Source of the DNA: a virus
IMG/VR virus record: IMGVR_UViG_3300009502_001749
Coordinates: 23,837-87,836 of that record
DNA length: 64,000 bases
Strand: one strand, 5' to 3'
Shown: positions 8,600 through 47,581 of the stretch, piece by piece
Layout: each line of letters begins with the position of its first letter
Numbering within the stretch: position 1 is the first letter of the stretch
The notes under the pieces: model-generated
Told to the model about the DNA's origin: nothing
Databases searched by the model: none
Seen by the model: the letters and a program-made list of their open reading frames with translations, nothing else
Position numbers and translations under genes: made by a program

Positions 8600-10322
8600 A
8601 TGGCAAGAAAAAAAGAAGATACAAATAAAAGTGCAAACAATAGTAGTTATGATTCTTCAAATTTTGAAAGTGCATCAACTAGTCAAGCTGAACTTTTGGG
8701 AACAGCATTTGAATCTATTATTACAACTAAATATGGATTTGCTAGAGCACCAGAACCTTATCTTACTCCATTTGGAATTCAACATTTGGATGGTTTAATT
8801 GGTGGAGGAATAACTTCTTCAGCACCAGTTATGTTAACATCAACTCCAGAAACAGGTAAAAGTACATTAGCTTTTCAGCTTTCAAAGATATTTCAAACAT
8901 TATATCCAAATTCGATGGTTGTTTATTTGGATATTGAAACAGCAGCAAATAAATCTAATAAAAATAATGCAATGTCTCGAGTTAATATATTTGAGATTGA
9001 TGAAAAGAGATTCAGGTATGAACCTTTGGTTATTGATATAAACCAGTTGTTTGAGTTGATCGAACAGTTGTGTCAAGTAAAACAAATGTTTGAACAAAAG
9101 TCACAGAAAGAGTTTAAAGTATTTATTATTTGGGATAGTATAGCGGCAACACCTTCTTCTAAAGTTGCTGACGCTGAAGATCCAAATAAAATAATTGGGG
9201 TTAGCTCTAGGCTTTGGCTCCAATAAAATCTTGTGAATTGCTGGAACACCCTTAAAACTTTTCTACTACAAAGTAATCTGAAAAGATAAACTTGAATGTT
9301 TAAAAAAGAAAAGATTGGGCAATCAGCAGCCGAGCTCCTAAAGAATCTGCTAAATTTTATGGAGAAGGTTCAACGACTAGTCGAAAGACGTAGAGTTTAA
9401 GTAAACTCGAAGCGCAAGACATTCAGAAATGAATGAAGATATAGTCTGATCTATATGGAAACATATAGCTGAATAAAATTCAGAAGAAGAATTAACGATT
9501 CTTCTTAAACACAAATGAAAAGCTCGCCAGTTAACATTTGCATTAGAAAAATATTTGCCAATGATGGCTTTTAACAGAATCACATTTCTTGCTATTGATC
9601 AAGTTCGTGCAAATCTTCAGATTGATCCTTACGCTCAAAAAGAAAAGTCAGTCGGGATCTTTAAAGATTATCGCGCCGCTACATCAATATCAGCTCTCAA
9701 TCATAGAGTTGCTCAATGGTTATTTTTATCCAGAAAAGCAGCTATAACACCAGATGATGGTTTGGGTATTAATGGTTGGCAGATGAATCTATATGTAGAG
9801 AAGAATAAAATTGCACCATCTCAAGAATCAATTACATGTGTTTTTGATAAAAGAAATGGTCTTCATAAATTTTGGAGTGAGTATATTTTCCTTAGTGAAA
9901 TGATGCCATCTGAAAAGAAATATTATAAAACTGAAGAAAAAATACCTTATCCATTATCAATTATAAAATCTGGACCTCAGGTTCATCTTGAGTTTATAGA
10001 TCCAACAACTGGAAATGTTACTTATTCATCAGATAATATGTATAAGAAAAATATGAACAAAGCATATGATTCAGATGCTCAATTTAAAGCTGCTTTTGAT
10101 TATGTTGTTAGTATGGCTGTTGAACTTAGAATTAAACAAGGTCTTTTTAGAGAGAATGAATCAAAAGTTAATTTAAGTTCTGAAGAGATTGAAGAATTTG
10201 AAACTGAAAGTCTTGTTGATGAAGATATAAATACACCTAAAATATCTGCCGCTGAACAAATTGTAGCAGAAATACCTTCAACTAATATTGAAACCGAAGC
10301 AACATATGAATCAATATTTTAA
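8600..10322 (+). CDS. recA: RecA/UvsX-like recombinase, spliced join(8600..9201,9518..10322), 468 aa
   Basis: TPFGIQHLDGLIGGG; Walker A STPETGKST; YLDIE; Walker B IIWDSIAA. Splicing restores IIGV-KARQLT, followed by IDQVR and KNKIAP. Confidence 0.88.
9202..9517 (+). ncRNA. Group I intron (no ORF, 316 nt) in recA
   Basis: P AATTGCTGGAA, Q AATCAGCAGCC, R GTTCAACGACTA, S AAGATATAGTCT. P1 TTGGGGT/GCTCCAA has the U-G splice pair; P10 GCTTT/AAAGC; terminal G; splicing restores the frame. Confidence 0.93.
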
Positions 10323-10345
10323 TATTGTTGTGTAGAGGAGTTATT

Positions 10346-11320
10346 ATGGATGTTAGATTTTTGAAAGAAATTAGTGAAGCATATATTATGGACACAGAAC
10401 TTGATGCTTTTCCAGAACAAATATTTAATGAATTATATGGAATCACCAAATATATTCAAGCGAATGATCTGGAATTATATAATGAACTTTATGAATCAAG
10501 CAGAATCACTCAACAAAGAATTTTAAAAACATATCTTGATTGTGTTTTTGAATTAGATGTTCCTGAAAAAGTTGATGAAGAATTGTTAACTGAAGATCCT
10601 GGAGTTGGAGCTGTTATTGGTATATTGGGTTCAATTGTAATTGGATTATATCGTAAAGGAATAACAAAAAGCTTAATGAAAGCTGCATCTGAACTTGGAA
10701 AATTTTCTGAGTATATTGGAAAATTTCTAACTAAGAAAGGTAAATATTTTCAGCTTAGATATTCTATTATTCAGGAAAATTATAAAAAATGTTATGTTAA
10801 ATGTGGAATTGAAAAACCTTCTGATATTAGTGCGCTTTCATATGGTTCTATTTCTTCATCGGCAAATTTCGCATCTAAAAAGTCAGCAGAGCAAGCAAAG
10901 TGTCTTAGAGAATGTTATCTTGAAAATTTAATAGAAACAATTTGTTTGCATATGGAAGGATATTTCGCTTGTTTAAAAAGAACTGGAAATTTTGCCGCTA
11001 TACAAAATTCTGATTCTGATGATCTTATGAAACTTATATCTTCAACTAATATTGGAGCTGCATGTGCAGATTATTATGATTTAGCTCAATCATCTCTTGG
11101 AAATTTTTACAAAGTTCTTGAATTAGTTTATAATGAGATGGAAGAAGGAGATAAAAAATTAGAATGGATCAACAAACTCAGAGGAAGATTATATCAAACA
11201 AGACAACAAGTACAAAAATATGATAATAATCAGTTACAAAAATATGATTCTAATAGCGGACAAAGACCAGATTTCAAAAACAATCAAAGACCTGATTTTA
11301 AAAAGTTTCAAAGGTCTTAA
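10346..11320 (+). CDS. Hypothetical protein, possibly virion-internal
   Basis: RBS AGGAG before ATG 10346; acidic N-terminus ending LLTE; hydrophobic segment; Cys pairs; short C-terminal QRPDFK repeat. Confidence 0.6.
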   Translation: MDVRFLKEISEAYIMDTELDAFPEQIFNELYGITKYIQANDLELYNELYESSRITQQRILKTYLDCVFELDVPEKVDEELLTEDPGVGAVIGILGSIVIGLYRKGITKSLMKAASELGKFSEYIGKFLTKKGKYFQLRYSIIQENYKKCYVKCGIEKPSDISALSYGSISSSANFASKKSAEQAKCLRECYLENLIETICLHMEGYFACLKRTGNFAAIQNSDSDDLMKLISSTNIGAACADYYDLAQSSLGNFYKVLELVYNEMEEGDKKLEWINKLRGRLYQTRQQVQKYDNNQLQKYDSNSGQRPDFKNNQRPDFKKFQRS

Positions 11321-11383
11321 AAGAAATTTATTCCCATTAGGAGGGGTGTTTAAAATATCCTAGATTCAATCAGAGGAGAAAAT

Positions 11384-11647
11384 ATGATTAGAGCTACAAT
11401 GTCTAAACGTAGTAAAGCTGGAAAAATGAATGCACTTGGTGGTGCTTTTGCAATGAGAATTGCGAGAGAAAAAGGCGATCCTCTTTATGTTAAAATGAAG
11501 AAACTTAAATTTTTATACAAAGCTGCGAAACTAACACTTCTTAAAAGATATGGTTCAAAGGGTAAAATGGCTGCTCGTTTGGCTGCTATGGGCAAAGTTC
11601 AGAGTTTTGCTCCTCATGTTTCTGGTCAACCTGTTCACAAAAAATAA
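11384..11647 (+). CDS. Small very basic protein, likely nucleic-acid binding
   Basis: RBS AGGAG; K/R-rich; AREKGDPLY motif. Confidence 0.6.
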   Translation: MIRATMSKRSKAGKMNALGGAFAMRIAREKGDPLYVKMKKLKFLYKAAKLTLLKRYGSKGKMAARLAAMGKVQSFAPHVSGQPVHKK

Positions 11648-11655
11648 AAATTTTA

Positions 11656-11692
11656 AATATTTGGGAAGGTGTCAAAAGCCTTCCCAAATATT
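11656..11692 (+). terminator. Hairpin terminator candidate
   Basis: Inverted repeat AATATTTGGGAAGG...CCTTCCCAAATATT after a stop codon. Confidence 0.6.
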
Positions 11693-11708
11693 ATATTTGC
11701 AATTTATA

Positions 11709-23863: not shown

Positions 23864-23888
23864 AAATTTGGAGGCGAAAAGAAAATTT

Positions 23889-26747
23889 ATGATACGGGCA
23901 CCATTTGTTTTAACTAAATATGATGAAGAGTCACTGAATCTTCTTCAAGAAAGTAATGGGATAAGTATTGATGAAATTAAACAAAACGAATGGTTTAAAT
24001 GTCGAGAAAATCCTTTTTATTTTATTTTGAACTATGTTTATCTACCAGAAGTTGGTGGAAAATTAAAATACACAAAAGAGTACTTACACCCAAAATTTAG
24101 AAGAATAATCAAATCAATATATAAAAATCATATGGCAATGTTGATGGCAAGTCGGCAGCTTGGGAAGAGCTCTATCGCTGCATGTCTTTTAGCATGGGCT
24201 TTAATCTTTTTTCCAAACAACAGAGTTGTCATTTTAAACTATCGAAAAATTGCCGCTCAAGAAAACTTAAAGAAAATAAAGTTTATAATACAAAATTTAC
24301 CAACATGGATGAAAATTCCTTATAGATCGAAAAGTGAAATTAAGGAATATGCTGAACTTCAAAACGGTTCAAGAATAGATACATTTTATCCTTCTTCAAC
24401 AAGTTCACCATCAACATTAGCTAGATCGCTTACAGTTCCGATTAACTTATAAAGTCGCTTTCATCAGTAATGATGATCGAATAATCCGGTGAATTCAGGG
24501 AAACTCCTAGTAATAGGACAATCCTGAGCCAAGCTTTAAATCTTGCCGCTAACAAGATTTACTGAAGGTGCAACGACTATCCCGAAAGGGAGTACATTCA
24601 AGCGAGTGGAAGCGCCGGACAACCTTAAAAATGAAAAATAAAAAAGGAAATAAATATGGAAGAAAATGAATATAATAAAATGAATTATTCTCAAGATATT
24701 TTAAAAAGATTTTGGAGTAAGATAGAAATTCCAGTTGATTGGGAAACAAATGATCAATGTTGGAAATGGAAAGCTAGTACATGGAAAGGATATGGACAAT
24801 TTTTATTATATGAAAATAAAAAAGTAAGAGCTCATAGATTTATATATGAATATTATTATGGTCCAATTTTAGATGATTTAATTATAAGACATAAATGTGA
24901 TAATCCAAGTTGTTGTAATCCTAATCATTTAATAACTGGTACTCAAATAGATAATGTAAATGATATGATTGAAAGAAAAAGACAAAATAATGTTAAAGGT
25001 TCTGAAAATGGTAATTCAGTTTTAACAGAAGAACAAGTTATTGAAATTTTAGAAAATATTAAAAATGGGTTATATTCAACTCAATTACAAATATCTGATG
25101 ATTATTTTATTAGTAAATCTGTTATTAATAAAATTTTAAACGGATATTTGTGGAAATCTATTACAGATAAATATAATCTTGATGAATTAAGAAAGATATT
25201 TACACATCCAAATTCACAATTAACAAAAGAAGAAGTTTTAGAAATTAGAAAATTATTTTTGGATGGAAAAAATAATATTGAAATTGGTAAAGAATTTAAT
25301 GTTTCACCTATCACAATTTCAAGAATAAGAACTGGAAAATTATATAAAAATTTTTAAGGTTGATGAGATAGTCTAATCTACATAGTAATATGTAGCAGTC
25401 TAACAAGACGGGTAGAGAGTAGCGATCTCTATTGAATACAAATGTTTATATGTTGATGAAGTAGCATTTATTAGTCATATGGAAGAAATTTATGGGAGCG
25501 CACAACAAACACTTTCAAGTGCAAGAGACCAAGCTATAAAGAATGATTATCCTTACTTTATTTTAATGACTTCAACTCCAAATGGTGTTGAAGGTGATGG
25601 AAAATTCTTTTATGATTTTTGGACTAATGCAGTTGAATCAGATGATATTTTTGAAGAAGATCCAGAAAATGGAATGGAAGATTGGAAACCAGATATATCA
25701 GGTCTTCTTAATCAAGCAGATAGAAATAGTTTTATAAGAGTTAAATATCATTGGTCTGAAAATCCAGATAAAACTATGGCTTGGTATGAACAACAAAAGA
25801 AAGAACTTAACTTTGATCTTAGAAAAATAAACCAAGAATTAGATATTCTTTTTGTTGGTGGAACAAATTGTATTTTTACTGATGAAGTTTTACAAAAATT
25901 AACTTATATACCCAGAACTAATTATATTGAACTTTCAAATCAAGTTCAATTTGATATGTATGGAGAAATTGATGAACAAGATTATCTTTTAGTTGGAGTT
26001 GATACAGCAAGTTCAATTAAAGGAGCTTTTAATGCTATAGAATTGTTTTCTTATAGAGATTTTATCCAGTTAGGTGAAGCTAATATTCGTTTGGGTTCAT
26101 TAACTAAATATGGTGAAACAGTTGATTCATTATTTAGAAATTTATATAAAACAACTAAGAGAATACTTCTTTGTATAGAAAATAACTCAATTGGTAAAGC
26201 TGTTATTGAACATTTAATTTATCATGTTAAAGATTTTAATTATATGCCTTTTATATATAAAGAAAAGAAATTGGATATGACAGATAAAGATGAATTTGGA
26301 ATATCAACAACAGGTCAATCAAAAGAATTAATGGTTTCACTTTTTTATGATCATATTAATCAAAATCCAGGATGTTTAAAGTCACAGAATTTGATTGCTC
26401 AGTTAGGTACAATACAAAGATCAAATCGTGGTACTGTTAAAGGTTCTGGTTATAGTGATATGTTTATGTCTGGTAGTTTTTGTGCATATGTTAGGAATAA
26501 AACTTATCTAGATATTTTGCCGCTATTAGGACAATCAAATAAACAAGTACAAGATACATTTTTTAACTCAGTAAAAACAGCTGCTGAAATGATGAATGTT
26601 AAATTAATTATTAAAAATTCAATTCAACAAGAAACAGGATATTTATCTATTGAAGAAGATAGATATAGAGATGAAGAAGCAAGACATGAACATGATACAA
26701 TAATGGATGAAGATTGGAGAGTGTTTATACCTATTTTAACACCATAG
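23889..26747 (+). CDS. terL: Terminase large subunit (gp17-like), spliced join(23889..24442,25445..26747), 618 aa
   Basis: KCRENPFYF; Walker A SRQLGKS; splicing restores Walker B VPI-LYVDEVAFI; STPNG; nuclease motifs GVDTA and IENN. Confidence 0.9.
24443..25444 (+). mobile_element. Group I intron with HNH gene, in terL
   Basis: P AATTCAGGGA, Q AATCCTGAGCC, R GTGCAACGACTA, S GAGATAGTCT. P1 CGAT/GTCG; P10 TATAAA/TTTATA; terminal G; in-frame splice. Confidence 0.93.
24656..25357 (+). CDS. Intron-encoded HNH homing endonuclease with C-terminal HTH repeats
   Basis: CWKW...GYG...RAHR...HKCDNPSCCNPNHL...N. ORF sits inside the stem CAACCTTAAAAA/TTTTTAAGGTTG. Confidence 0.9.
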   Translation: MEENEYNKMNYSQDILKRFWSKIEIPVDWETNDQCWKWKASTWKGYGQFLLYENKKVRAHRFIYEYYYGPILDDLIIRHKCDNPSCCNPNHLITGTQIDNVNDMIERKRQNNVKGSENGNSVLTEEQVIEILENIKNGLYSTQLQISDDYFISKSVINKILNGYLWKSITDKYNLDELRKIFTHPNSQLTKEEVLEIRKLFLDGKNNIEIGKEFNVSPITISRIRTGKLYKNF

Positions 26748-31509: not shown

Positions 31510-33759
31510 ATGTCAATTGAAAAAATTGTAAATAAAATTTTACCAACTGCAGTTGCAGCAGCAGCTTTAACTAAAACTGTTACTAATCTATCTGATATGA
31601 AATTTATTAATAATGAATTTTTACCCGGAATATCTGCGGTAACTGGTTTAAAATTAGGTCCTATTCCAAATTTAAGTGATTTAGCTAAAAATGCTATGGG
31701 TTCTGTATCAGATATGTTTGGTTCAGCTAAAGATGCAGTAGGAAATATGTTTGGATCATCCAAATCTGATATAATAAAAGAAGATGCAATACATACTTTA
31801 GATGAAAGTGTTGGTATGGCTGCTTCTCCAGAAAGTATATGTTGCAATACAATTCCAGTAGATGAAGCTGTAAAAACAACAGGTGATAGTTTTGGTGGTA
31901 ATTTTGCTGCTGCGGCAACAAAATCAACATTTTTAGATTCAAATCTTTTACCAGAATTACCTGATAATTTAAAGACAATAGAACCTCAATCTTTTGGTGA
32001 TCTTGGTAGTGATTATGATTCTGCTCCAGAAGGTTATAATCCTTCTTATGAAGGTGAATGGACAGAACCATCATTTGGTGAATTAGGTAGTGATTATGAT
32101 TCTCCTTCTTGGGATGAAAATGCTTATGAAGCTCCTCCAGAAGGTTATAATCCTTCTTATGAAGGTGAATGGTATGAAGATGATTTTAGTATGTTAGGTA
32201 GTGATTATGAAGCTCCTCCTCCAGATTTTAGCGAACTTGGAAGTGATTATGAAACACCTCCTTGGGATGCAGATGCTTATGAAGCTAGTCCTAATTGTAT
32301 AGGAAATAGTATAGATTCTGGTGAAGAATCAATAACAGACTTTGATTCTCCAAGTGGTGGCGGTTCAATGCCAACTGGTAGTAGTCTATATGTTATTGGT
32401 AAACCAGTAGGATTTAATGAATCTATAGATCCAGGTGGAAGACTTAGTAATTATATTAAATCAAAAATGAGTGTTATTGATCTTATTCCATGTGATTATA
32501 AATTAGATTTTACAAAAATGAAAGAACAAAGTATGGAAGGAGGTAATCCTGTTGGTGATGGACTTTACACAATAAAATATGATGAAAAAGTTAAAATATA
32601 TCAAAGGCTCCAGAGACATTATGGATTAGATTCTGGAGATTCTGCAAAATCTGGAGTAAGATTATATACAACGGACGATACAACTTCAGTTGATAATTTT
32701 AGCATTCAATATAAACCAAATATATTTCAAGGTCCAATTGATAAACTTGGTGATGCTACAAGATCATTAGCTGATTTTATGAATTCTGTGGATAGTACTT
32801 GGCAAGCAACTGCTAATAAAAAAGTTTCAGAAGGTATTGATTGGTTAAAAACGAAAATGGGAAATAATAATGCTACTAATGCAGCAGGAGCTTTTTTAGA
32901 AACTGCAATAACTTCTATTGTGAAAGGTAATAGAGTTTCATTTCCTAAAATTTGGCAGAATACATCTTATAATAATACACTATCAACTGTTATTAAATTA
33001 GTATCTCCATATGGTCATCCTAAAGCTGTTTATGAGTTTATAATTAAACCATTAACATATTTAATTTTATTAGCTTCTCCACAAACAATAGATGGTTTTA
33101 CATATGGTGGTTCGATACCATTAACAATAAAAGCATATGGTATGAATCATACAACTTTAGGAACAATTAGTAATATAACAGCTCGACGCGGTGGAAATGA
33201 CACAAGTTTTAATGTTTATCGGCAACCTTTATCTATTGATGTTAGTATAACTTTTGAAACATTATTTGACGGTTTTGCCGCTTACTTACCAAATGGAAGC
33301 GGACAAGGAATAGATGAAATGTTTTCAGCTAAAGATGGTACATTAACAGGTCAATCTGGTCCTGGAAATGAATTATATCAAAAGACACCAAGAACACCTT
33401 TAATGACTGTTGGAAAAGTGCTTGAATCATTAAAACCAATAAAAATTGTTGAAGGTAATTTTGATACATATGGTTCTATGAATAGACCTTCAAGAATAAA
33501 TGCTCCTGGTGCTGGTGGTTTAGGAGATCTTAATCGTTCTCTTGGAAATATTTCTTCTGGTGTATCAACAGCAACAAATACAGTTGGAGATTTTTTAGGA
33601 ATGTCTAATCTTTCAGAATTTACAACTGCAAAAAAATCAATCACAGGTGTTATAAATTCAGTAACAGGTTGGGTTGGAGAGAGAACAAAAGATGTATCTG
33701 TAGGAGATGCAGCAAAAGAAAAAATATTTGGAAATATGGGAATTAACTTAAAAATGTGA
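31510..33759 (+). CDS. Baseplate hub / tube-cap-like protein with an acidic repeat region (start revised to 31510)
   Basis: GGAGG RBS; C-terminal ISNITARRG...PLSIDVSITFE resembles a gp48/tube fold; follows the tape measure gene. Confidence 0.5.
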   Translation: MSIEKIVNKILPTAVAAAALTKTVTNLSDMKFINNEFLPGISAVTGLKLGPIPNLSDLAKNAMGSVSDMFGSAKDAVGNMFGSSKSDIIKEDAIHTLDESVGMAASPESICCNTIPVDEAVKTTGDSFGGNFAAAATKSTFLDSNLLPELPDNLKTIEPQSFGDLGSDYDSAPEGYNPSYEGEWTEPSFGELGSDYDSPSWDENAYEAPPEGYNPSYEGEWYEDDFSMLGSDYEAPPPDFSELGSDYETPPWDADAYEASPNCIGNSIDSGEESITDFDSPSGGGSMPTGSSLYVIGKPVGFNESIDPGGRLSNYIKSKMSVIDLIPCDYKLDFTKMKEQSMEGGNPVGDGLYTIKYDEKVKIYQRLQRHYGLDSGDSAKSGVRLYTTDDTTSVDNFSIQYKPNIFQGPIDKLGDATRSLADFMNSVDSTWQATANKKVSEGIDWLKTKMGNNNATNAAGAFLETAITSIVKGNRVSFPKIWQNTSYNNTLSTVIKLVSPYGHPKAVYEFIIKPLTYLILLASPQTIDGFTYGGSIPLTIKAYGMNHTTLGTISNITARRGGNDTSFNVYRQPLSIDVSITFETLFDGFAAYLPNGSGQGIDEMFSAKDGTLTGQSGPGNELYQKTPRTPLMTVGKVLESLKPIKIVEGNFDTYGSMNRPSRINAPGAGGLGDLNRSLGNISSGVSTATNTVGDFLGMSNLSEFTTAKKSITGVINSVTGWVGERTKDVSVGDAAKEKIFGNMGINLKM
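31993..32286 (+). repeat. Intragenic imperfect tandem repeats (F-x-x-LGSDY x4; PEGYNPSYEGEW x2)
   Basis: Exact DNA duplication of CTCCAGAAGGTTATAATCCTTCTTATGAAGGTGAATGG. Confidence 0.85.
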
Positions 33760-35667: not shown

Positions 35668-35901
35668 ATGATTTCAATTACAAATTTATTTGAAGAAATT
35701 TCAGCAGTAGATGATAGAATGAATTATGCTAGTGAAAGAATTGCTACATTACAAAGAGCTTTTAAAGCTGGAAGAATATCTGCAAAAATTTATCAACAAC
35801 AATTAAAACAATTCCAACAAGTTAAACGTGGAGTTCCATCGAAAGAAATGCCTGAAAGTGAAATTAAAGCAGCAGGCACATATTTAAATACTCAACAATA
35901 G
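35668..35901 (+). CDS. Leader-tagged small protein
   Basis: RBS GAGGT; MISITNLFE. Confidence 0.6.
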   Translation: MISITNLFEEISAVDDRMNYASERIATLQRAFKAGRISAKIYQQQLKQFQQVKRGVPSKEMPESEIKAAGTYLNTQQ

Positions 35902-35915
35902 TAAAGAGGAGGCGT

Positions 35916-38777
35916 ATGGATTTTGCATCAAACAGTACAAAAAAAGTTGTATCAAATTCTTTATTAAAAGCTTTCATATCAAGATATGTTGCAGAAGATT
36001 TTTTTACAAATATTGCAAGAATAATTCTTTATCCATCTGATTTTGGTAATTTTATTTCAGATAGAACAAATTCTGTAATTGATTATATGCAAGAATTTTT
36101 AAAGAGTTTATCAATTTTTTCTGGTAAATTACAACTGCAAAATACTAAAGTTGTTAGAAGTCAAATTGCTATTTTAAGTTCTTTATTAACAATTAGAGAA
36201 ACAAGTCCAATTTTATTAACTTATGATAATGTGAATCAACATTTAATGCCAGGACAAGATTTAATTGTTACTAAACTTATTCAAAAATGTGTTGATGAAA
36301 GAATTACTGATCCTGATGAATTTAGAAAAATTACAGATGAAATTATCAGTACAATTTCTTCTTATTATGAAATGATGTCAGCTTCAGATAGTATTACTAT
36401 GGTTGGGAATCTTTATGATTTGATTAATGAAGGTAATCTTGTGCCGATGGAAACATTAAAAAGTTATAAAGATGTTATTAATGTTGCATATAACGATTTA
36501 TCTAAATTACAATCTTTAAGTAAAGCTGAAACAGCTGCAGATTATTTTGTTATTTCAGATGATAAGTCTTGTGATGCATTATCAAAAACATTAGTTAATT
36601 ATGTGTCAAAAGGTTTTTCAGTATTTAAAACTGGTTTTGATTTATTTGATAAATATATTAATGGAATTGAAAGTTCCAGCGTACATTTGATAGGGGCTCC
36701 GAGCAACCACGCTAAGAGTTTGTTTACGATTAATCTCTCATATAGAATGATAAAAAATAATCTTGCCGATTTCGATAAACAAGATTGTATATTATTTGTA
36801 ACATTAGAAGATTTAGTTAATAACTAACTTTGTCTCTTTTACTGGTGACAGTAATTGAAAAAATCCGGTGAATTCAGGGAACATCCTAGTAATAGGACAA
36901 TCCTGAGCCAAGCTTTAAATCTTGCCGCTAACAAGATTTATTGAAGGTGCAACGACTATCCCGAAAGGGAGTACACTCAAGCGAGTGGAAGCGCCGGACA
37001 TCTTGAGAAATTTAATATTATGGAGTTATTAAAATGTTTAATGAAATGAATTACCCAGAAAAATATATTATAAGATTTTGGGACAAAGTAAATGTTCCAA
37101 AAGATTGGGCTGAAAAAGATCAATGTTGGAAATGGAATGGACTTTTATTTATAAAAACTAATTATGGAAGTTTTTCTTTTAATGGTAAAAATCTTAAAGC
37201 TCACAGATTCTCATATGAAATTCATTATGGTCCAATTCCTGAAGGATTAGATGTTATGCACAAATGTGATAATCGAAAATGTGTAAATCCAAATCATTTA
37301 AAAGTTGGTTCCAGAAAAGAAAATATGGAAGATTGTGTTGAAAAAGGAAGATCAAAATTTGGTTCTAAAAATAATATGTCTAAGTTAACAGAAAATAATA
37401 TTATAGATATTATTAATAAAAGTTTAAATGGAACATATACAAATAGAAATCAAGTTATTAATGATTATAAAATATCATTATCAGAACTTTCAAATATTCT
37501 TTGTGGAAAAAGATGGACACATATAACTTCTAATTTTACACAACAAGAAATTGAAAAAGTAAAATATTTATTAGGATGTAGGTTATCAATAGAAGATATT
37601 GCTGATATAAAAATGAGATTAGATAAAGGTGAATCACAAAGTTCAATAGCTAGAAGTTATAATATATCTCAACCGGTAATATCAAATATGATAAAATTTA
37701 TAAAACTCAAGATGATGAGATAGTCTAATCTTATAGGTAACTATAAGCAGTCTAATAAGACGGGTAGGGAGTAGCGATCTCTATTGAATAAAAATGGATA
37801 TTTACAAATTAATTCGTAGGTTCGCGTCAATATATGGAAATTATAAATTTGAATCTTTAAAAAGATTATTTTCAAAATCATATGAAATGACAAGAGCAAC
37901 ACAAATAATGGACATGTCAACTGAAGCAAGTTCAAGATTGTATAATAATTTAGACGGGATGTTTAAAAATGTTTTAAAAACAAGTATTGCTAAAGTAACA
38001 CAAGGTAAAGTTAATATAGCAATTAAACATTGTTCAGAGAATTCGTTTTCTCCTGGTGATTTAGGAAGATTTATAGATCGTTTGAATATTGAAGGTTATA
38101 AGATTAAGATGGTCTTTGTAGATTACTTAGATGTTATGTCTGCGACAATTAACAGATTTGGTGGAGCAGGGAAAGAATATGATATACTCGGTCAGATCAC
38201 ACAAGAACTTCGTAACTTAGCTCGTATACATAAAGTACCAATAATAAGTCCTACACAGAATAGAAGAGAGTCAGAGAATGTAAGCACAAAACTAAGTAAT
38301 GAACAAACTGGTGATTCATATAAAAAAATCAGATATTCGGATTTTATATATTCATGTAGATTAAGACCAGATTTAGATTTTCTATCTGAAGGAGTTAGAC
38401 ATCATGTGATTCCAACAAAAGTAAGTCCAGATGGAACAATTGCAGATTTTATTTCTCCAGAACTTATAAAACTTAAAGAAAGCTTATTTAGAGTATTAGT
38501 ACCTTTTGAAGTTAAAATTACAAAGTCAAAAGATTCAGAAAAAGATTCAACAAAATTTTTCTTATTTTGTAAAGAAAATTTGAGAATGTATAATAATGTA
38601 GATGAATATATTAAAGATGCTCCTGTTCTTGTTGCTAATAGTGAAAAGTTAGAGAAAGATATTGCTATATTAACTGAATTAGCTATTACAAGTGTTTCAA
38701 GTGGAATTAATGAATTTTTTGATAATGATCAGAGTGATATTGAATTTGGTGATATTCCAAATGTTGTTTTTGGATAA
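35916..38777 (+). CDS. DnaB/gp41-like replicative helicase, spliced join(35916..36812,37797..38777), 625 aa
   Basis: KTGFDLFD; atypical Walker A GAPSNHAKS; FVTLE; VFVDYLDVM; ELRNLA; SPTQNRR; GDSYKK; ITKSKD. Confidence 0.85.
36813..37796 (+). mobile_element. Group I intron with HNH gene, in the helicase gene
   Basis: P/Q/R/S nearly identical to the terL intron; P1 AGAT/GTCT; terminal G; splice gives TLED-DIYKL in frame. Confidence 0.92.
37034..37723 (+). CDS. Intron-encoded HNH homing endonuclease
   Basis: CWKW...KAHRFSYE...HKCDNRKCVNPNHL; paralog of the 24656 ORF. Confidence 0.9.
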   Translation: MFNEMNYPEKYIIRFWDKVNVPKDWAEKDQCWKWNGLLFIKTNYGSFSFNGKNLKAHRFSYEIHYGPIPEGLDVMHKCDNRKCVNPNHLKVGSRKENMEDCVEKGRSKFGSKNNMSKLTENNIIDIINKSLNGTYTNRNQVINDYKISLSELSNILCGKRWTHITSNFTQQEIEKVKYLLGCRLSIEDIADIKMRLDKGESQSSIARSYNISQPVISNMIKFIKLKMMR

Positions 38778-38822
38778 TGGAGATTAATATGAAAAAAGAT
38801 CCAACAGAAGATTAATATTTTA

Positions 38823-38855
38823 ATCGGCAAGATTTAGAAATAAGATCTTGCCGAT
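38823..38855. repeat. Dispersed palindrome copy 4
   Basis: ATCGGCAAGAT...ATCTTGCCGAT. Confidence 0.88.
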
Positions 38856-38885
38856 ATTTTAAACTAATAGGGGGAAACTGATAAA

Positions 38886-39125
38886 ATGGATTTAGTGGAT
38901 AATCCAACTAATTGTAATCAACTTGAAAGTAATTCTGCTCAAAATTTTAGAAATTTTTATTGTTGTGAATATGATAATTGCCTCGATAAAGCTATTGAAA
39001 ATAATTGGAGAAGTTTTAGTTGTCAAGATTGTTGGAAATTTTCTTATAAAGAATCTATGAAAAAATTATATTTATTATCATCATTTTTATTATTAATTAA
39101 AAATAGATATGGATTAATAGTTTAA
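38886..39125 (+). CDS. Small Cys-rich protein
   Basis: CCEYDNC...CQDC; purine-rich RBS. Confidence 0.5.
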   Translation: MDLVDNPTNCNQLESNSAQNFRNFYCCEYDNCLDKAIENNWRSFSCQDCWKFSYKESMKKLYLLSSFLLLIKNRYGLIV

Positions 39126-39284
39126 TTTTTAAAAAGTTGAAACCCTTTTAACAAATACATGAAAATAGTCTACATATAATGAAAAATGTAATGGGGTAAC
39201 TATATTAATAACCGGAAAAGTATTAACAAAATGTTGTGAATCAATAGTGATTCAACAAAAAATTAATTTAATGGAGGTTTTTAC

Positions 39285-39533
39285 ATGTTAAGAGAGTTTA
39301 TACAGTTGGTAGACGAAGCAGTCGATGAGGGTTATGATCGCGGACTTAATCTTTTTATGGAAAGTCTTGAAGAGGATCTTACTAAGAATGAAGTCATTGC
39401 TGAAAGTGGTGGTTTTGACAAGGTAATTTCTGAGATGATGACTGCAGATGGTATCGAACTTCTGAATGAGGAAGAAATTAGTGAAGATCAGATCGATGCC
39501 CTTTTAAAAGAATTAGAGAAAGAGGAGAAATAA
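39285..39533 (+). CDS. Small acidic protein, prohead core/scaffold candidate
   Basis: RBS GGAGG; E-rich with LVDE, IAE and LNE protease-type sites; upstream of portal. Confidence 0.55.
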   Translation: MLREFIQLVDEAVDEGYDRGLNLFMESLEEDLTKNEVIAESGGFDKVISEMMTADGIELLNEEEISEDQIDALLKELEKEEK

Positions 39534-39914
39534 TTGTATAATATTTTTGCAATATGCTTATCATTAATTGAAATAGGAGTTTTGTTATTAATTTTATTAA
39601 AATTTGATAAAGAAAGAATTCATGAAGATGAATTTGTAATTTCTAACACAGTTTTAAATAATGTTATGAATAATTATTATGAATCAATTCTTGTTTTTAA
39701 AATTGAAGAATTGAAGAAAAATTATGACTTAGATCCGAGTTCAAAAACGAATTCAATTAAGCCATTTACAGAAAATTATAATATAATGCTTAAAGATTGT
39801 TCTAAAGAAATTATAACTTCTTATTTATCAAAAAATTGTTTAAGTGTATTGTTGAAATATTATAGCGTTGAGAGTCTTGTTTTAATTATAATATCAAATT
39901 TGAAGAAAAGGTAA
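39534..39914 (+). CDS. Hypothetical protein with an N-terminal TM segment
   Basis: TTG start after AGGAG; hydrophobic N-terminus. Confidence 0.55.
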   Translation: MYNIFAICLSLIEIGVLLLILLKFDKERIHEDEFVISNTVLNNVMNNYYESILVFKIEELKKNYDLDPSSKTNSIKPFTENYNIMLKDCSKEIITSYLSKNCLSVLLKYYSVESLVLIIISNLKKR

Positions 39915-39917
39915 TTT

Positions 39918-42900
39918 ATGTCATTATTTGGCCAGTTTTTTAAAGATGATTCACTTGAAAATTTTGATGCTAGAATAGATTCACTTGTTAGTCAATTTCC
40001 TTCTACTGAAAAAGGAGAACCAGTTGATTTGTTATCTGGAGATTTTATTTCATCGTTTATGGAACATTCATCTAAAGATGAACTTGAAAAAGTACTTGCA
40101 GGAATATCTGTTTCTAGAGATAGACTTGAAAGATATGCTGTTTATGATGAAGCATATAAATATGTACCAATTCTGAAACGTATGATGAAAGTTTATGTTG
40201 CTAATATTTTACAAAAGAATCCAGTAACAGGTAAAAGCGTTCTCATTCAAGAGTCTGGAGATTTAACAAAAGAAAAGCGTCAGAATAAAGAAATTTTAGA
40301 ATCGGCGAAAGATTTTGCCGATAAATGTATTAAATCATTCGATTTATTAGCTAGATTAAAAAACAAAATTTTACCAAATGAACTAACCTATGGTGACTGT
40401 TATCTTGAAGTTGTTGATGTGAATCAAGAAATTAAAAAATCTGATCCGGAAGGTGCTGCAGCAGTTCAAATGACTACGTTGTTTGAAGGTGATTTAATAA
40501 ATATGACTGCTGAAGTTGATCAAATGAAAAATCGAGCAAATGGTCATTTGCCGATAGGACAAATTGATCAATTATTATATAAGACCGCTGAATATTTGGC
40601 TGATATTGAAGTTGCTTCTATTACAGAGTATGATCCTAATGAAAAGGATGATGAAGATAAAAAGAAACAAAGTAATGGATCAACAAATTATGCTGATAAT
40701 TCATCAACAAAAACTAGTGATAAAGAAAACAAAAAAGAAGTTCAAGATTTTAATGATATTGTTATTAAAATTCATAAACCTCACAATATTATAGTTTTAC
40801 AAACAAACTATGGATCAACTATAGGATATCTTGAAGTTGCAAAAGATGAATTTCCTCAAGTATTTAATTTAACTCAATCTCTTTCAACTTTAGTAGGACG
40901 TATAACATCACTAGTAGGAAAAGATCAATTAAGTCAAGATAATGTAACTGATAGGATTGTTCGATTTATTGTAAAACAAGCATTAGATAAAGCTGATAAG
41001 TCTAAAGCTTTTGATATGAGTCAGCAGAATGTACAGAATATTAATGACATTCTGAAAAATTTAGACCCACAAGTTTACACTTACATTAAAAGATTAATTA
41101 TCGAACAAGGATTAAATCAGACACAGTCACAATATCTTAACAAGTTAAAGATCAGATTTATTTCTTCAAGCCGTATGATTTCATTTACAGTTCCATCGAA
41201 TGAGTATGATCCGTATGGAATTTCGTTTATTGATAATTTAGTATTTCAGTGTAAGTTGTATATTCTTTCACAGTTGTCTAATGTGATTATGAAGTTGAGT
41301 AGAGCTGCGCCAGTAAGAAAATGGACGATAGATACGGGCAGCACTCAAATGCACGCTAACTTGATTCAGAAGTTGAAACGTGAGCTTTACAATACAAGAG
41401 TAACATTAGATGATTTAGGTAGTTTTAAGAGTATTCCCAAGCTGTTAAGTGACTTCAAGGATAAATTTTTGTCCCCTATATCAGTAATGATATTTGAAAA
41501 ATTCGGTGAATTCGGTGGAACTCCTAGTAATAGGACAATACCGAGCCAAGCTTTAAATCTTGCTGCTAACAAGATTTATTGAAGGTGTAACGACTATCCC
41601 GAAAGGGAGTACGTCCAAGCGGACGGAAGTGCCGAATATCCTGTAATAGTAAAATAAAAAGTATGGAGGACAGCGCCGGCCAGCGTTGATAGATACCGAT
41701 TTATCTATCTTACTCCTTTTAAACAATTAACCTAATCGGAGGATTACAAATGAATAAAGAAAAAATTGAAAAAGCAAAACAAATTATAAAAAATTTTAAA
41801 AATGAGGAAGAACATTCAAATTTTATTTTTAAAATGTGTATTGAATGGAAATTATCTATTGAAGAAATTTCAGAATGTTATAATAATTATACTCCAGATC
41901 TCATTAAACAATTTTTGATTGAAGTGTATAAAGTTGAGTTTAAAAAGTGTAAAAAATGTTGTGAAACTAGATCAATAACATCTTTTACAAAACAATTTAA
42001 AGATAGTAATATAACTCGATCTTATTGTAAAGTTTGTAATAATCTTGAAAAAGCAAAATATAGAAAAATTCCAGAAGTGAGACAAAAAATATTGAATATG
42101 CTAAAGAATATAATCAAATGTATAATATTAATAATAGAGAACAAATTAAACAAACACATCATGAATATTATGAAACAAATAAAGATATTATATCTCAAAA
42201 ACAGAAAGAATATTATGAATTACATTCAGATGATGTTAAACAAAGATCAAAAGATTATTATTATGATAATCAAGAAAAATTTATACAACTTAGTATAGAT
42301 TATAAAAAACAACATCCAGAATGTGCTGAATACAGTAAAGAATATAATAAAATACATCATGATGAATTATTAGAATATAAAAATGAATATAATAGAAATA
42401 AATATAAAACAAATTCAAAACATAGATTAAGAGTTTGTTTTGGTTCAAATTTATATAATTCAATTAAGAATTTAAAAAGTGGTAGAAAATGGGAAGAAAT
42501 TGTTGGATATACTCTTGAACAACTTATGGAACATCTTGAGTCTAAATTTGATGATAAAATGACTTGGGATAATTATGGAAGTTATTGGCATGTTGATCAT
42601 ATTGTTGGAGTTGCAAATTTTAATTACACATCTTATGAAGATGAAGCTTTTAAAAAATGTTGGTCGTTAGAAAATTTACAACCTTTATATGGAGTTGATA
42701 ATCTTAAAAAAGGTGACACAATTAGTGAAAAATGGAATAATACTGAGTTAGCAGCTCAATTACTTATGTAACATAAAATTACAGGATAATGATATAGTCT
42801 AGTCTGTATAGTAATATACAGTTGTCTTTAAAAAGACAGGTTAGAAGTTGCGATTCTAGCTGAATATAAACGATGTTCGTGCTCGCGAAGGGCGGAAATA

Positions 42901-43448
42901 AACCTATAGATGTTGAAGTGACTTCACATGGCGACCCCACAATCAGAGTCGCAGATCTTGAAGATTCAAGAAGGGAAATAATGAGCTTGTCCGGCATACC
43001 CCCAGCATATTTGGGCTACGCGGACGTGATCGAATTGCGCGAGCAACTAGTTCACACAAACATCTCTTTCGCTACAGAAATAATTGATATGCAAGAGATA
43101 ATTACAGCTGGTCTTACAAAATTTGTAGATATTGTAGCAGAAATTTTAAATGTTAAATATAAACCATCGGAATACGTACAGATTAAATTAATTCCACCGA
43201 TAGTTTTAATTCTTCAGTTGATTGAGATGACTCTGTCATCAATTGGTAATATTAATGGAATATTTCAAACGTTACAAACTCCAGTTGATCCTTATTTCTT
43301 CTTAAAACAATATGTACCATATATTGATTGGGATGCGTTTAGAACAGCAGCAGATCAATATGTTACTGATCAAAAAACAAAAGCTGAAATAGATGCTAAT
43401 AAGAATCCTGGAAATTCGAATCCTGAACCTGGAGCTGAAGGAGGGTAG
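39918..43448 (+). CDS. Portal protein (gp20-like), spliced join(39918..41462,42873..43448), 706 aa
   Basis: LSRAAPVRKWTIDTG; splice gives LSDFKD-MFVLAKGGNKPIDVEVT; LSGIPPAYL; position upstream of protease and capsid genes. Confidence 0.85.
41463..42872 (+). mobile_element. Group I intron with a frameshifted HNH gene, in portal
   Basis: P AATTCGGTGGA, Q AATACCGAGCC, R GTGTAACGACTA, S GATATAGTCT; P1 GGAT/GTCC; terminal G 42872; in-frame splice. Confidence 0.92.
41750..42771 (+). pseudogene. Intron-encoded Zn-finger/HNH endonuclease split by a -1 frameshift at the A6 run 42084-42089
   Basis: Frame 1 has CKKC and CKVC. Frame 2 continues NIEYAKEYNQ... to WHVDHI...NLQPL...DNLKK. Confidence 0.75.
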
Positions 43449-43450
43449 TA

Positions 43451-43879
43451 ATGTTTTTAGTTGAAGTTTTATTTGAACAACAAACTCAAACACCATCCCA
43501 AGTTCCTCCAGTGCAAATTGTACAACATGTTAATCAGCCTGAAACTAAACAACCTGAACCTACTTCACAACAGGATCAAGATGTTCCTCAGGAACAACCT
43601 GAACAACAACTTTCAGGAGATGAACTGGATGCTGTTCAGGCACAAGAAATGGGAATTGCTCCAGATCTTATGCCGATAAAAAAATATTATTTAATCAACA
43701 GATTAAAAGAGTTAAAAACCCAATTGGGTGAGTACAGTATACAAAATGATGAACTTAATATTGTACTAAAATTTGCCGATAATTTATCTTATAGTTCATT
43801 ATTAAGTATTGGAATGATACTTATTGATTTTATTGAACAACAATTAGCGAGGTTAACAGATGGCAAAAATAAAAGCTAA
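43451..43879 (+). CDS. Prohead core/scaffold-like protein
   Basis: Between portal and protease; MFLVEVLFE N-terminus; Q/P/E-rich linker. Confidence 0.55.
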   Translation: MFLVEVLFEQQTQTPSQVPPVQIVQHVNQPETKQPEPTSQQDQDVPQEQPEQQLSGDELDAVQAQEMGIAPDLMPIKKYYLINRLKELKTQLGEYSIQNDELNIVLKFADNLSYSSLLSIGMILIDFIEQQLARLTDGKNKS

Positions 43880-44621
43880 GAAATATAATTTTATATTTGA
43901 AACCACCTCGATTAATTCACGTGATGATATTAAAGTTTTAGAAGAAACAAAATTGCCTAATGGTAATGGAAAAATTGCAGCCTCAGTTAGACTTCAGGAA
44001 GCAGAAATGAAGAATAGTAATAGTCGATATTACTCAACTGCGATTTGTGAATCCATAGTGAGTCAGTTATCTCCGAAAGCAACGAGTCGATCATTATTAA
44101 TGGAGATTGATCACCCACTTTTTGTAACTTCAGCTGACGATGTTAAAAGACGTGCGTCAATCGTAGAAATTAATAATTGTGGTGGTTTGTTAAGAAAGAT
44201 AGATTTTGCCAATAATAAAGTAGGTGGAATCTTTGAAACCCTTAGTGGATTTAAAGGTCCGGATTTGTACAACATAATAATGAAAGATCAGGTAGACATA
44301 GGATTTTCATTGAGAGCTCTTGGTGCAGTCGAACAGCTTCAGGATGGAACAATATTAGTCAAAGATCCTATAAAACCAATCACGTATGATGTAGTTTCGA
44401 ATCCAAGTCATGCAACGGCAAAAGTTCTTGAATTCTTACCAGAAAACGTTACAGAGTATATGTCTGAACACAGTGTGATTTATGAAGCTGCTGATATAGA
44501 AATGTTAGATTTAGATCATATAACAATTTCTGACAGTACAATTTCACTAACTGAATTTTTTGATGATATTTATAGACAGAAATTTTCAGATGTTATTAGT
44601 AGAATAACTTTTAGAGTTTAA
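43860..44621 (+). CDS. Prohead protease (T4 gp21-like)
   Basis: NSNSRYY; MEIDHP; GFSLRALG; ITYDVVSNPS (catalytic H/S/D). Confidence 0.9.
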   Translation: MAKIKAKKYNFIFETTSINSRDDIKVLEETKLPNGNGKIAASVRLQEAEMKNSNSRYYSTAICESIVSQLSPKATSRSLLMEIDHPLFVTSADDVKRRASIVEINNCGGLLRKIDFANNKVGGIFETLSGFKGPDLYNIIMKDQVDIGFSLRALGAVEQLQDGTILVKDPIKPITYDVVSNPSHATAKVLEFLPENVTEYMSEHSVIYEAADIEMLDLDHITISDSTISLTEFFDDIYRQKFSDVISRITFRV

Positions 44622-44655
44622 TTACTCAATATTATATTTAAAAGGAGATTTAATT

Positions 44656-47581
44656 ATGTACGATCAAGCGATATTCGAAAATTATGAAATGTTCTTAAAT
44701 GAGCATAGTGATGAATTTTCTACTCCAAGTGGAGCTTTAAAACTCATTACAGATAACGGTATGTTTAGGGGTTACATGGAAGGACTTACAAATGGTCTTG
44801 ATTCAAATCAGAGAGCAGTTGCTATGGCAGTTGCAAATCGTCAGAGAGAATATCTTTTGACAGAATCTGCAAACGTTCCTGGTAGTACACTTGCATTTGG
44901 TTGGACTGTACTTAGCTTTCCTATTCTTGTTGATATTTATGCTGAGCCAGTAATAAGTGAATTATGTAATGTTTATCCGGTTTCATCCCCAGTAGCATCT
45001 ATTCCCAGAATCAAAATCATGGCTTATATTAGAGGCTATGATGGTAACGTAACACAGGTCAGAATGCCTACGCTTAATCAGGCTGTTAGACCCGGTGCAT
45101 TGAATCTTACAGTAACACCTGCAGTAAGCAACAGCATATTTACTATAGCTTCAGCGGCAGTTGCTCCTGCAACAGTAACGTCTGATATGTACAGAATTAA
45201 TAGAAGGTATACACTTCTTACAGCAGTTCAGGTAGCAGAAACTACAGCTCTTGGTCCTGTTGTAAATCATAATGTTGTAGTAACAATAAAGCCTGATAAT
45301 AGAAATCAGTTTGTTGGTACTTTTACATTTAACGATAATACTCCTGCTCCTGTAGGTCCAGTTGCTATCGTTGGTACATTGAATGGTCATATTAATTATG
45401 ATTCTGGAATTTTTCAGTATCAGGTAATTTATGCTGTTGGCGCAACTACTTCTACATTTGCAACAACTTCAGCAACAATGACTATACGTTTTATGTCTCT
45501 GACAACTCAGAATGGTCGTATAAAGGTCAAAATTCAGACTGAAATGACTGACGTAAGTATAGATCAGAATGAAGATTTTCTCATCGAATTACCACCTGAA
45601 GATATACAAGATTTTCGCGCGATCAACAATTAAAGGTCGCTTTCACTAGTAATAGTGATCGAATAATTTTCCTAATTGCTGGAACACCCTTAGAGCTTTT
45701 CTACTACAAAGTAATCTGAAAAGATAAACTTGAATGTTTAAAAAAGAAAAGATTGGGCAATCAGCAGCCGAGCTTCTGTAAAATGAAGAAGGTTCAACGA
45801 CTAGAGCGCAAGCTCGTAGACTCAAGCGAGTCGAAATGGAAGAAATCCTTGAATATTTAACATTTTCATATAGAAATAATAAATTAAGTCTAGCCAACTT
45901 TGAACTAATTTATTATGGAGGTGAGAATGGAAAAAGAATGTTGTAAATGTCATCAAATTAAAGATGAATCAGAATTTGAAAAAAGAAATGATGTTAATTA
46001 TTGTCATAAATGTACGAGTATTAATAATAGAAGAAGAAAAATCAAGAAAAATACTCCAGAAGAAAACTTTCAATTCTTATATAAACTATATATGAGAGGT
46101 GAAACAGTAGAAGATTGTTGTTTGTACTTTGAAACATCTAATAATATTATCATTGAAGCTTTAAATCTATTTGGAATTTTTCCAGATCAAACTGATAAAT
46201 TATTTTGCTCAAAATGTAATCAAATGAAATCATTTGATGAATTTGATCAAAGTAAGAATAGAAGAGGATTTAAACCTTGGTGTAAAACATGTAATAAAGA
46301 ATATAATGATACATATTATGAAGATAATTCAGATTATATTAAACAAAAAACTCTTAATTACTATTATGAAAATTATGATATTGAAGTTGAAAGACGTATT
46401 AAATATCATTATGATCATAGAGATGAAATTCTTGAAAATAAACGTATAATGAGACAAAATGAAGAGTTTAAACAAAATAAAGCTATTTATGATGCATCAT
46501 ATTATGAAATATATAAAGAAGAAATTAAAGAAAATATTTATCAATGGAAAATAAATAATCCAGCAAAAGTAAGAGAAATACAAGAATTTTATCGTATAGC
46601 AAAATTACAAGCAACACCTAAATGGATTGATAGAGAAGAAATTTTAAAATATTATATTGAAGCTAGAAGATTAACAGAAGAAACTGGAATATTATATTCT
46701 GTTGATCATATCATTCCATTACAAGGTGAAAATGTATGTGGTTTACATGTTCCATGGAATTTACAAGTTATTACACAATCAGAAAATTGTAGAAAAAATA
46801 ATAAAGTTTTAGTAGAAATGTGATTGGCTATCACATTTCTTTTTGTTTTTCAAGGATTATGATATAGTCTAATCTCATAAGAAATTATGAGCTGTCTGAA
46901 TAAGACGAATAAAATTTAGCGAATTTTATTGAATATAAATGCTTTAAGATCGACATTTTACGTACACTTTCCGAAGCAATAAAAAGACAGATCATGTTGA
47001 ACAAAGATCAGGATCTTGCTTTCTTCTTAGCAGCTTCAGAAGGCGATATGGCATCTAACGGTGCTGCAGAAGCATTGAATCTTGATAGTTACGATGTAAC
47101 CGGCGGTCGTTTCGAACCTAACAAAGTTATCGATGTATTTAAGGCTGTAATTCCTAAGATTTCTATTCTTACTGGAATTATAAGAAAGAATTTCAACATG
47201 TATCCTTCTTATTTAGTAGCTGGTTTAAAGACTGCTGCTTTGTTAAGATCAGTTCAGACATTTGCACTCCAGATGCCGGGTATTGGAAATGGCGACGGCG
47301 CAATGGGTTGGGCAGGAGATGTTGCACAGATGTTGAAGATGAAAGTTCTTGAATCTAATGCAATCGCAGAAGGTAAGATATATCTTTCAACAAAAGCTCC
47401 GAATAATGCTCTTGAAAAATCTACTATAGTTGATTTGATTTATCAACCTCTCTACATCGTAACTGAGGTAACTGATGGTCAGACCAGAAACTATGTAAGA
47501 TCAAGAACTCTTATTGAAATTCCTAGAACAGATGGTCTTGGAGTTATCAATATAACTGGTCTTGGTACTTATTTTACGTAA
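44656..47581 (+). CDS. Major capsid protein (gp23-like), spliced join(44656..45623,46942..47581), 535 aa
   Basis: Follows the protease; propeptide ending LLTE. Splice gives DIQDFRAI-FKIDILRTLSEAIKRQIMLNKD, similar to gp23 QDLRAVHG..EIN. C-terminal YQPLY. Confidence 0.85.
45869..45880 (+). promoter_or_regulatory. Candidate phage promoter inside the capsid intron
   Basis: TATAGAAATAAT about 35-45 nt before the HNH start. Confidence 0.45.
45915..46823 (+). CDS. Intron-encoded HNH endonuclease with Zn fingers (start may be 45927)
   Basis: Four CxxC pairs; VDHIIPLQGENVCGLHVPWNLQVI...N..KNNK. Confidence 0.88.
   Translation: MEVRMEKECCKCHQIKDESEFEKRNDVNYCHKCTSINNRRRKIKKNTPEENFQFLYKLYMRGETVEDCCLYFETSNNIIIEALNLFGIFPDQTDKLFCSKCNQMKSFDEFDQSKNRRGFKPWCKTCNKEYNDTYYEDNSDYIKQKTLNYYYENYDIEVERRIKYHYDHRDEILENKRIMRQNEEFKQNKAIYDASYYEIYKEEIKENIYQWKINNPAKVREIQEFYRIAKLQATPKWIDREEILKYYIEARRLTEETGILYSVDHIIPLQGENVCGLHVPWNLQVITQSENCRKNNKVLVEM

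Follow-up and report, generated by a model that had tools for sequence, protein, structure and literature searches.

Group I introns are on record in core genes of several phage lineages, and RNA or protein proof of splicing accompanies a number of these precedents (PMC3706429, PMC5618024, PMC12880540, PMC11878797). In the Twort-like Staphylococcus phages, whose introns lie in the terminase large subunit (terL), recA-like, lysin and polymerase genes, full-length products of the interrupted terL and RecA-like genes were detected by mass spectrometry (PMC5618024). The Bastillevirinae possess 45 introns, with splicing in 8 of 9 tested genes (PMC11878797). Genomes of the crAss-like Zeta group carry up to 14 introns and include one capsid gene in five fragments (PMC7886860), while the Jug phages have a mean of 18.5 introns per genome, a split terL gene, and confirmation by metatranscriptome reads for 37 of 76 introns (PMC12880540). 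Splicing of a capsid intron was proven in the mycobacteriophage LittleE by RT-PCR and N-terminal sequencing across the junction, in a study which left the type of the intron uncertain and cited the capsid intron of lactococcal phage Tuc2009 (PMC3706429). Finally, a competitive function was shown experimentally for the mobile intron in gp210 of phage PhiPA3 (PMC11620839). Here we consider a 64,000-base stretch of DNA, hereafter the window, which spans bases 23837-87836 of the 87,836-base IMG/VR virus record IMGVR_UViG_3300009502_001749. We hold with high confidence that it contains five genuine group I introns, one each in its recA-like, terL, helicase, portal and major capsid genes.

These are ordinary mobile phage introns of a subgroup IA-like kind, occurring in a dense cluster, and introns of capsid, terminase and recA genes have already been published. 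An earlier, sequence-only reading of the window, which had correctly proposed all five, placed them against a background in which phage introns are found mainly in genes of nucleotide and DNA metabolism. This framing is out of date with respect to capsid genes (PMC3706429, PMC7886860), terminase genes (PMC12880540, PMC5618024, PMC11878797) and recA-like genes (PMC5618024). A non-exhaustive literature search found no described intron in a portal gene; portal introns are seen in a relative of the window (G003, below), and a portal gene also emerged from our survey of IMG/VR.

The record has a CheckV completeness of ~31%, and its closest IMG/VR relative, G001, is a 285,572-base contig rated 95% complete; hence, the window derives from a fragment of a jumbo phage, one from fresh water and uncultured, whose core genes are of the T4 type. 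Its sequence recurs in metagenome runs of lake water and freshwater, which belong to at least two studies (2017 and 2020) and may include the source samples of the record. Like the crAss-like Delta and Zeta phages and the Jug jumbo phages, this phage has many group I introns in core genes, including capsid and terL. However, those lineages come from human and animal guts rather than lake water, and the intron density here is lower, with five in 88 kb; neither an alternative genetic code nor inteins were seen within the window. With LittleE and Tuc2009 the window shares a single endonuclease-bearing capsid intron recognized against an intron-less relative, though their capsids are of the HK97-type siphovirus form, whereas the present one is of the gp23 type in a jumbo phage.

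The five introns are as follows:

9202..9517, + strand: group I intron 1, recA-like gene, 316 nt, no open reading frame (ORF), core subfamily A; RF00028 93.2 bits, E 1e-22; absent from G001
24443..25444, + strand: group I intron 2, terL gene, 1002 nt, core subfamily B; RF00028 58.2 + 26.2 bits; absent from G001
36813..37796, + strand: group I intron 3, helicase gene, 984 nt, core subfamily B; RF00028 73.1 + 20.8 bits
41463..42872, + strand: group I intron 4, portal gene, 1410 nt, core subfamily B; RF00028 57.2 + 25.3 bits; absent from G001
45624..46941, + strand: group I intron 5, capsid gene, 1318 nt, core subfamily A; RF00028 37.7 + 25.7 bits; absent from G001

The covariance-model search that the sequence-only reading had recommended thus bears it out, RF00028 matching all five intervals. 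A scan of the whole window at the gathering threshold of this family (50 bits) reported only the recA-like intron; the other four were recovered by Rfam scans of each region alone, each as a 5' core match and a 3' match on either side of an inserted ORF. The catalytic core (P3-P8, with the P4/P6 and P3/P7 pairings and the P, Q, R and S elements) scores above 50 bits in the recA-like, terL, helicase and portal introns. Weighing against the assignment of the fifth, each piece of the capsid intron falls under the gathering threshold. A search with nhmmer, using family-specific profiles against the whole 87.8-kb contig, returned exactly these five copies. A further RF00028 candidate at 33307-33463 (12.9 bits, E 0.04) was rejected as noise, lying inside a 760-aa ORF and being missed by the family profiles.

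The boundaries of the introns can be read from G001, where no interruption is present in the recA-like, terL, portal (702 aa) or capsid (535 aa) gene. We joined the last 45 nt of exon 1 to the first 45 nt of exon 2, and in all four genes the resulting 90-nt junction aligned at the DNA level to G001 without a gap. The G001 proteins are colinear with the exon pairs, with abutting coordinates and 83-97% amino-acid identity, and the nucleotide identity in the recA-like and terL genes is 83-89%. G001 hence lacks four of the five introns precisely, and because its intron-less alleles align ungapped across the junctions, the coordinates given above are exact, as is the restoration of the frame that had been predicted from the letters. 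In the recA-like gene a boundary shifted by one base fits the DNA comparison equally well, and the one given is preferred because no other shift-compatible boundary ends in G. In the helicase gene G001 shares the insertion site, its intron there containing a different endonuclease gene.

The ligated junctions, read from the sequence, are KIIGV|KARQLTF (recA-like), SLTVPI|LYVDEVAF (terL), FVTLED|DIYKLIRR (helicase), LSDFKD|MFVLAKGG (portal) and DFRAI|FKIDILR (capsid). As the earlier reading had noted, the insertions fall in conserved motifs, the terL intron directly preceding the Walker B motif LYVDE. The exons of the five genes are:

8600..9201, + strand: UvsX/RecA-like recombinase exon 1; phrog_97 UvsX-like recombinase, E 1.7e-20, profile 1-186; colinear with the uninterrupted G001 gene
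9518..10322, + strand: UvsX/RecA-like recombinase exon 2; phrog_97 profile 194-301; G001 alignment
23868..24442, + strand: terminase large subunit exon 1, ending SLTVP-I; Pfam Terminase_6N; phrog_5989, E 6e-27
25445..26747, + strand: terminase large subunit exon 2, starting LYVDEVAF (Walker B); tblastn against annotated T4-type terL, 22-24% identity; G001 alignment
35916..36812, + strand: DnaB-like helicase exon 1, ending FVTLED; phrog_19 profile positions 334-390
37797..38777, + strand: DnaB-like helicase exon 2, starting DIYKLIRR; Pfam DnaB_C; phrog_19 positions 410-584, E 5e-22
39918..41462, + strand: portal protein (T4 gp20-like) exon 1, ending LSDFKD; 85% identity to the uninterrupted 702-aa G001 protein
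42873..43448, + strand: portal protein exon 2, starting MFVLAKGG; 90% identity to G001 portal residues 515-702
44656..45623, + strand: major capsid protein (T4 gp23-like) exon 1, ending DFRA-I; 95% identity to the uninterrupted 535-aa G001 protein
46942..47581, + strand: major capsid protein exon 2, starting FKIDILR after a split Ile codon; 97% identity to G001 capsid residues 324-535

In the recA-like gene, exon 1 ends in KIIG-V, the codon being split after its second base; exon 2 opens with KARQLTF, and the gap between the two on phrog_97 amounts to 7 profile positions. The portal gene was identified through homologues of the G001 protein with PF07230 Portal_T4 and Atlas features of 0.97-0.98 to portal clusters; a PDB sequence search with the portal profile gave no match. 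The 535-aa capsid protein of G001 matches phrog_20655 major head protein and Gp23 clusters (by features and by structure, TM 0.68-0.81), and a tblastn search with capsid exon 1 gave no match. The order of the genes is portal, head-maturation protease, capsid.

The ribozymes fall into two core subfamilies. Subfamily A comprises the recA-like and capsid introns, which are 88% identical over 145 nt of the core, and subfamily B the terL, helicase and portal introns, which are 85-88% identical over 150-180 nt. Between the terL and helicase introns the identity is 72% over 608 nt, endonuclease ORF included, and a related 3' domain is common to all five (76-90% identity among the four ORF-bearing introns). 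Compensatory double changes maintain pairing at 16 of 20 pairs in P9/P9.1/P9.2 and at 20 of 38 in the core, in a comparison of seven related introns (the five of the window and two of G001) that is supportive of the structure rather than a statistical proof of it. The minimum-energy fold of the recA-like intron yields the expected helices P3-P9.2, with z = -3.46.

The features of the splice sites noted in the sequence-only reading are likewise present. All five introns end in G (AAATG in four, AAACG in one), and the 5' exons end in GAT in four cases and in GGT in the fifth. The U-G pair of P1 is seen in every intron of the set of seven: a guide 9-20 nt into the intron, its first base a G, pairs with the last 4-8 bases of the exon, the U of the 5' splice site facing the leading G of the guide. 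The guides differ between these seven introns, each being complementary to its own exon. In the recA-like intron the guide GCTCCAAT pairs with the exon ATTGGGGT; the other guides are GTCG (terL), GTCT (helicase), GTCC (portal) and GTCGC (capsid), and those of the two G001 introns GTCCTCT and GCGG. Most 5' exons end in GAU because the guides retain a GUC core. Changes in this short internal sequence have redirected both core subfamilies towards different genes. P10 comprises 6 bp in the terL (TATAAA) and capsid (TTAAAG) introns; in the helicase and portal introns it is weak, at 1-2 bp, a point against the proposed splicing.

Two hairpins, P7.1 and P7.2, follow GACUA between P7 and P3' in the Rfam alignments of the recA-like, terL, helicase and portal introns, and both are also present in the fold of the recA-like intron, which has no ORF. 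By the usual definitions, such hairpins presumably denote subgroup IA (IA2 or another IA), and the structure points to subgroup IA-like phage introns. The relevant comparison is with the HNH-bearing introns of this subgroup in the DNA polymerase genes of Bacillus phages SPO1 and SP82 (with I-HmuI), in Twort-like phages and in the Bastillevirinae. The likenesses include: 1) a core of the self-splicing type with the P7.1/P7.2 and P9.1/P9.2 extensions; 2) an HNH ORF, with or without a helix-turn-helix (HTH) domain, in a peripheral loop; 3) sites in conserved motifs of essential genes; and 4) a patchy presence. The differences are that the present host is an uncultured freshwater T4-like jumbo phage and that its portal and capsid genes also carry introns.

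Four of the five introns contain an endonuclease ORF in the loop of P8, flanked by perfect stems of 9-13 bp:

24656..25357, + strand: HNH endonuclease with C-terminal HTH (terL intron), 233 aa; Pfam HNH_3 E 2.7e-11, HTH_38; phrog_59 E 2e-33
37034..37723, + strand: HNH endonuclease with HTH (helicase intron), 229 aa; Pfam HNH_3 E 5e-14; phrog_1872, phrog_59
41750..42771, + strand: zinc-finger/HNH 'endonuclease VII'-type gene, frameshifted (portal intron); phrog_1035, phrog_2633
45915..46823, + strand: zinc-finger/HNH 'endonuclease VII'-type endonuclease (capsid intron), 302 aa; phrog_1035 E 1.2e-19; phrog_26577 E 8e-24

The term 'endonuclease VII' is the PHROGs label for the latter two ORFs. 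The stem in the terL intron has 13 bp (24619-24631 / 25349-25361) and encloses most of the ORF, the last codons of which overlap its 3' strand; the corresponding stems lie at 41638-41647 / 42778-42787 in the portal intron and at 45843-45852 / 46848-46857 in the capsid intron. We take the ORF of the SPO1 intron to be placed in P8 as well. A PDB sequence search with the terL-intron HNH protein gave no match, solved proteins of the I-HmuI type included. In the capsid intron ORF a C-terminal DHIIP...N...N motif is readable. The three intact ORFs presumably encode active endonucleases.

The portal intron ORF consists of two overlapping frames, with a break between ~42067 and 42121 in an A-rich stretch; an intact G001 homologue aligns to it through residues 10-49 in frame 3 and 47-258 in frame 2. 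Because a separately assembled contig carries the same sequence at this point, the frameshift is probably a real decay of a homing endonuclease. The helicase intron of G001 combines a B-type core with a portal-type endonuclease gene, and cores and endonuclease genes have therefore been shuffled. The marks of mobility comprise both the ORFs of four introns and the presence or absence of introns at identical sites relative to G001.

Repeated elements of this kind raise the question whether the introns might be assembly chimeras of a repeat, or the genes truly split, expressed as halves or dead. The intron cores at 36682-37072, 41374-41764 and 45675-46065 are indeed repeats at which contigs of the Logan assemblies break and depth rises to 2-4 times that of the flanking genes, which indicates extra copies of the family, or other carrier phages, in the same samples; furthermore, no RNA runs containing this stretch are listed. 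Against such a view, separately assembled Logan contigs cross the exon-intron boundaries of the helicase, portal and capsid introns, these being the introns compared with Logan contigs (region 35900-47600), and a contig of run X3 spans 36965-44186, including the whole portal intron, with one mismatch. Among the contig matches listed for that region there was no clean intron-less joint at the three sites; most of the joints listed connect copies of repeated intron cores or of endonuclease genes, or are short in their flanks, a pattern that repeats and other genomes would give. Lake samples also yield contigs with 80-95% likeness, as well as a junction between a helicase exon and an intron core of the portal type, the arrangement of G001.

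Logan assemblies of runs from the two studies of 2017 and 2020 contain the intron-bearing arrangement at ~10-20x depth, and such a population therefore existed in more than one sample. The intact ribozyme cores with their compensatory changes speak for functional introns, as do the second exons, which begin in the middle of a motif and lack a start codon where they join the intron. The five host genes are essential, and each occurs only once in the 87.8-kb contig; this, with the depth in samples of different years and the contigs crossing boundaries, constitutes indirect support for function. On the opposite side, the contig is only ~31% of the genome, and a second intact copy of a gene elsewhere is conceivable. 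Taken together, we regard assembly artefact, truly split genes or gene death as very improbable, and infer that the five introns splice and restore the frame of their host genes.

The relatives of the window differ widely in intron load, from none detected to at least 5 in 10 kb. G001 has two introns of the family, in its helicase gene and in an RNA polymerase beta'-like gene; the latter is of the B family, 1153 nt long, with an intact 275-aa zinc-finger/HNH ORF, and lies at L007:606-1758 on the minus strand (G001:C1 ~195496-196648), just upstream of the GADHDGDQ catalytic motif. G003 (IMGVR_UViG_3300022664_000125), a 68.7-kb contig with 52% portal identity, has at least 5 introns within 10 kb (L017:2057-9865). 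Its portal gene contains two introns enclosing a 20-aa mini-exon (5906-5965), both 5' exons ending in GAT; its capsid gene contains at least 2 near the N-terminus with a 23-aa mini-exon, and its helicase gene one at a site different from that in the window. An Rfam-based genome search found no introns in G002, G004 (a complete 315-kb genome) or G005; since G004 contains the exact core motif, this search misses copies. The portal gene of G004 is uninterrupted.

Beyond these genomes, 34 of 120 portal homologues end at the recurrent points DFKD, SHGD, ADLED and KWTLDxG, mostly after an Asp codon, and these ends (among P0030-P0120) suggest several independent portal intron sites in this phage group. 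Exact core motifs were found in 68 + 9 stretches from ~75 IMG/VR contigs, and the ORFs upstream of them include RNA polymerases, major head proteins, DNA polymerases and a portal protein; the rule used in this survey, the longest open frame before the core, is crude, and some of the ORFs called are endonucleases rather than exons. Given core motifs beside such varied genes, the ribozyme family is, by the measure of these motifs, a widespread generalist among uncultured phages. In GenBank phages megablast gave only short matches to intron cores, at 41579-41629 and 45670-45768. The first, 90% across 51 nt, falls under an endonuclease VII annotation in the Klebsiella phages IME184 and Kpp-61. The second, 88% across 99 nt, is to a Manatee Spring Caudoviricetes contig that lacks annotation. 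Both are a hint that kindred introns, perhaps not annotated as such, exist in these phages.

The distribution of the family bears directly on a proposal of the sequence-only reading, that virion production is gated by the efficiency of splicing. That three splicing events are logically needed stands, as full-length TerL, portal and capsid proteins do require them; that they are rate-limiting or act as a gate found no support, and control by guanosine or Mg2+ is pure conjecture. A feature that could be cited for such a gate is found in the portal intron, where the frame of exon 1 remains open for 39 codons into the intron (41463-41582), through P2-P6, as opposed to 2-7 codons before a stop in the other four. 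This read-in could couple splicing to translation, and under a checkpoint it would be the most sensitive step. Splicing of T4 introns has been reported to depend on translation and on the growth state of the host. By analogy with work on T4, ribosomes reading into the portal intron could disturb the folding of the ribozyme, a point that also counts against its unhindered splicing.

Nevertheless, the terL, portal and capsid introns are missing from G001 and the portal gene of G004 is uninterrupted, the same ribozyme family stands beside unrelated genes in ~75 other viral contigs, and the homing endonuclease genes, one of them decaying, are a signature of selfish spread. Moreover, the splicing of a studied capsid intron was presumed by its authors to be very efficient (PMC3706429). 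We therefore consider it improbable that terL, portal and capsid splicing tunes assembly to host guanosine, Mg2+ or growth state, and give equally little credence to a checkpoint coupling virion production to the physiology or translation of the host. Because their presence and absence is patchy among close relatives, the introns are better viewed as selfish mobile elements than as a regulatory device.

In all probability, then, members of a single prolific, subgroup IA-like family of mobile introns have inserted into five essential genes, once in each. Each gene would be transcribed together with its intron, and the ribozyme would fold into P1-P9.2, including P7.1 and P7.2. Free guanosine would attack just 3' of the U that forms the G.U pair in P1, whereupon the freed exon end would attack after the terminal G, joining the exons in frame to give a full-length mRNA. 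The endonucleases presumably cut intron-less alleles of co-infecting relatives, into which the intron would be copied by repair (homing), and a move to new genes would have required changes in the guide. An improbable alternative would have the family colonize new genes through reverse splicing, directed by the guide into GAU sites, instead of endonuclease homing.

Compatible with homing, and adding a benefit to it, is the idea that the endonucleases act as weapons in interference competition (marker exclusion), cutting essential genes of co-infecting intron-less relatives and thereby skewing the progeny towards carrier alleles. The same lake samples appear to contain both intron-bearing and intron-less relatives, and in the jumbo phage PhiPA3, where, as in the present phage, an essential gene carries a group I intron encoding a homing endonuclease, the endonuclease of the RNA polymerase intron impairs a co-infecting phage (PMC11620839). 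The RNA polymerase beta'-like gene of G001 likewise carries an intron of this family, though it is for PhiPA3 that the competitive function has been shown. With one of the four endonuclease genes frameshifted and one intron devoid of any, such a benefit would not be uniform, and we put the idea forward only tentatively, as a possible but doubtful addition to plain homing.

Dense colonization of phage structural genes by introns is already documented, and the present case opens no new question in that respect. Its consequences are in the first place for annotation: where the introns go unrecognized, the five core genes of this phage, and those of relatives like G003, are miscalled as fragments, and the exact junctions repair the five gene models. 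The cluster also shows cleanly, in nature, how small changes of the guide and swapping of endonuclease genes have brought one ribozyme family into several essential genes, and the matched intron-less alleles in its sister genome make it good material for understanding how introns reach new sites.

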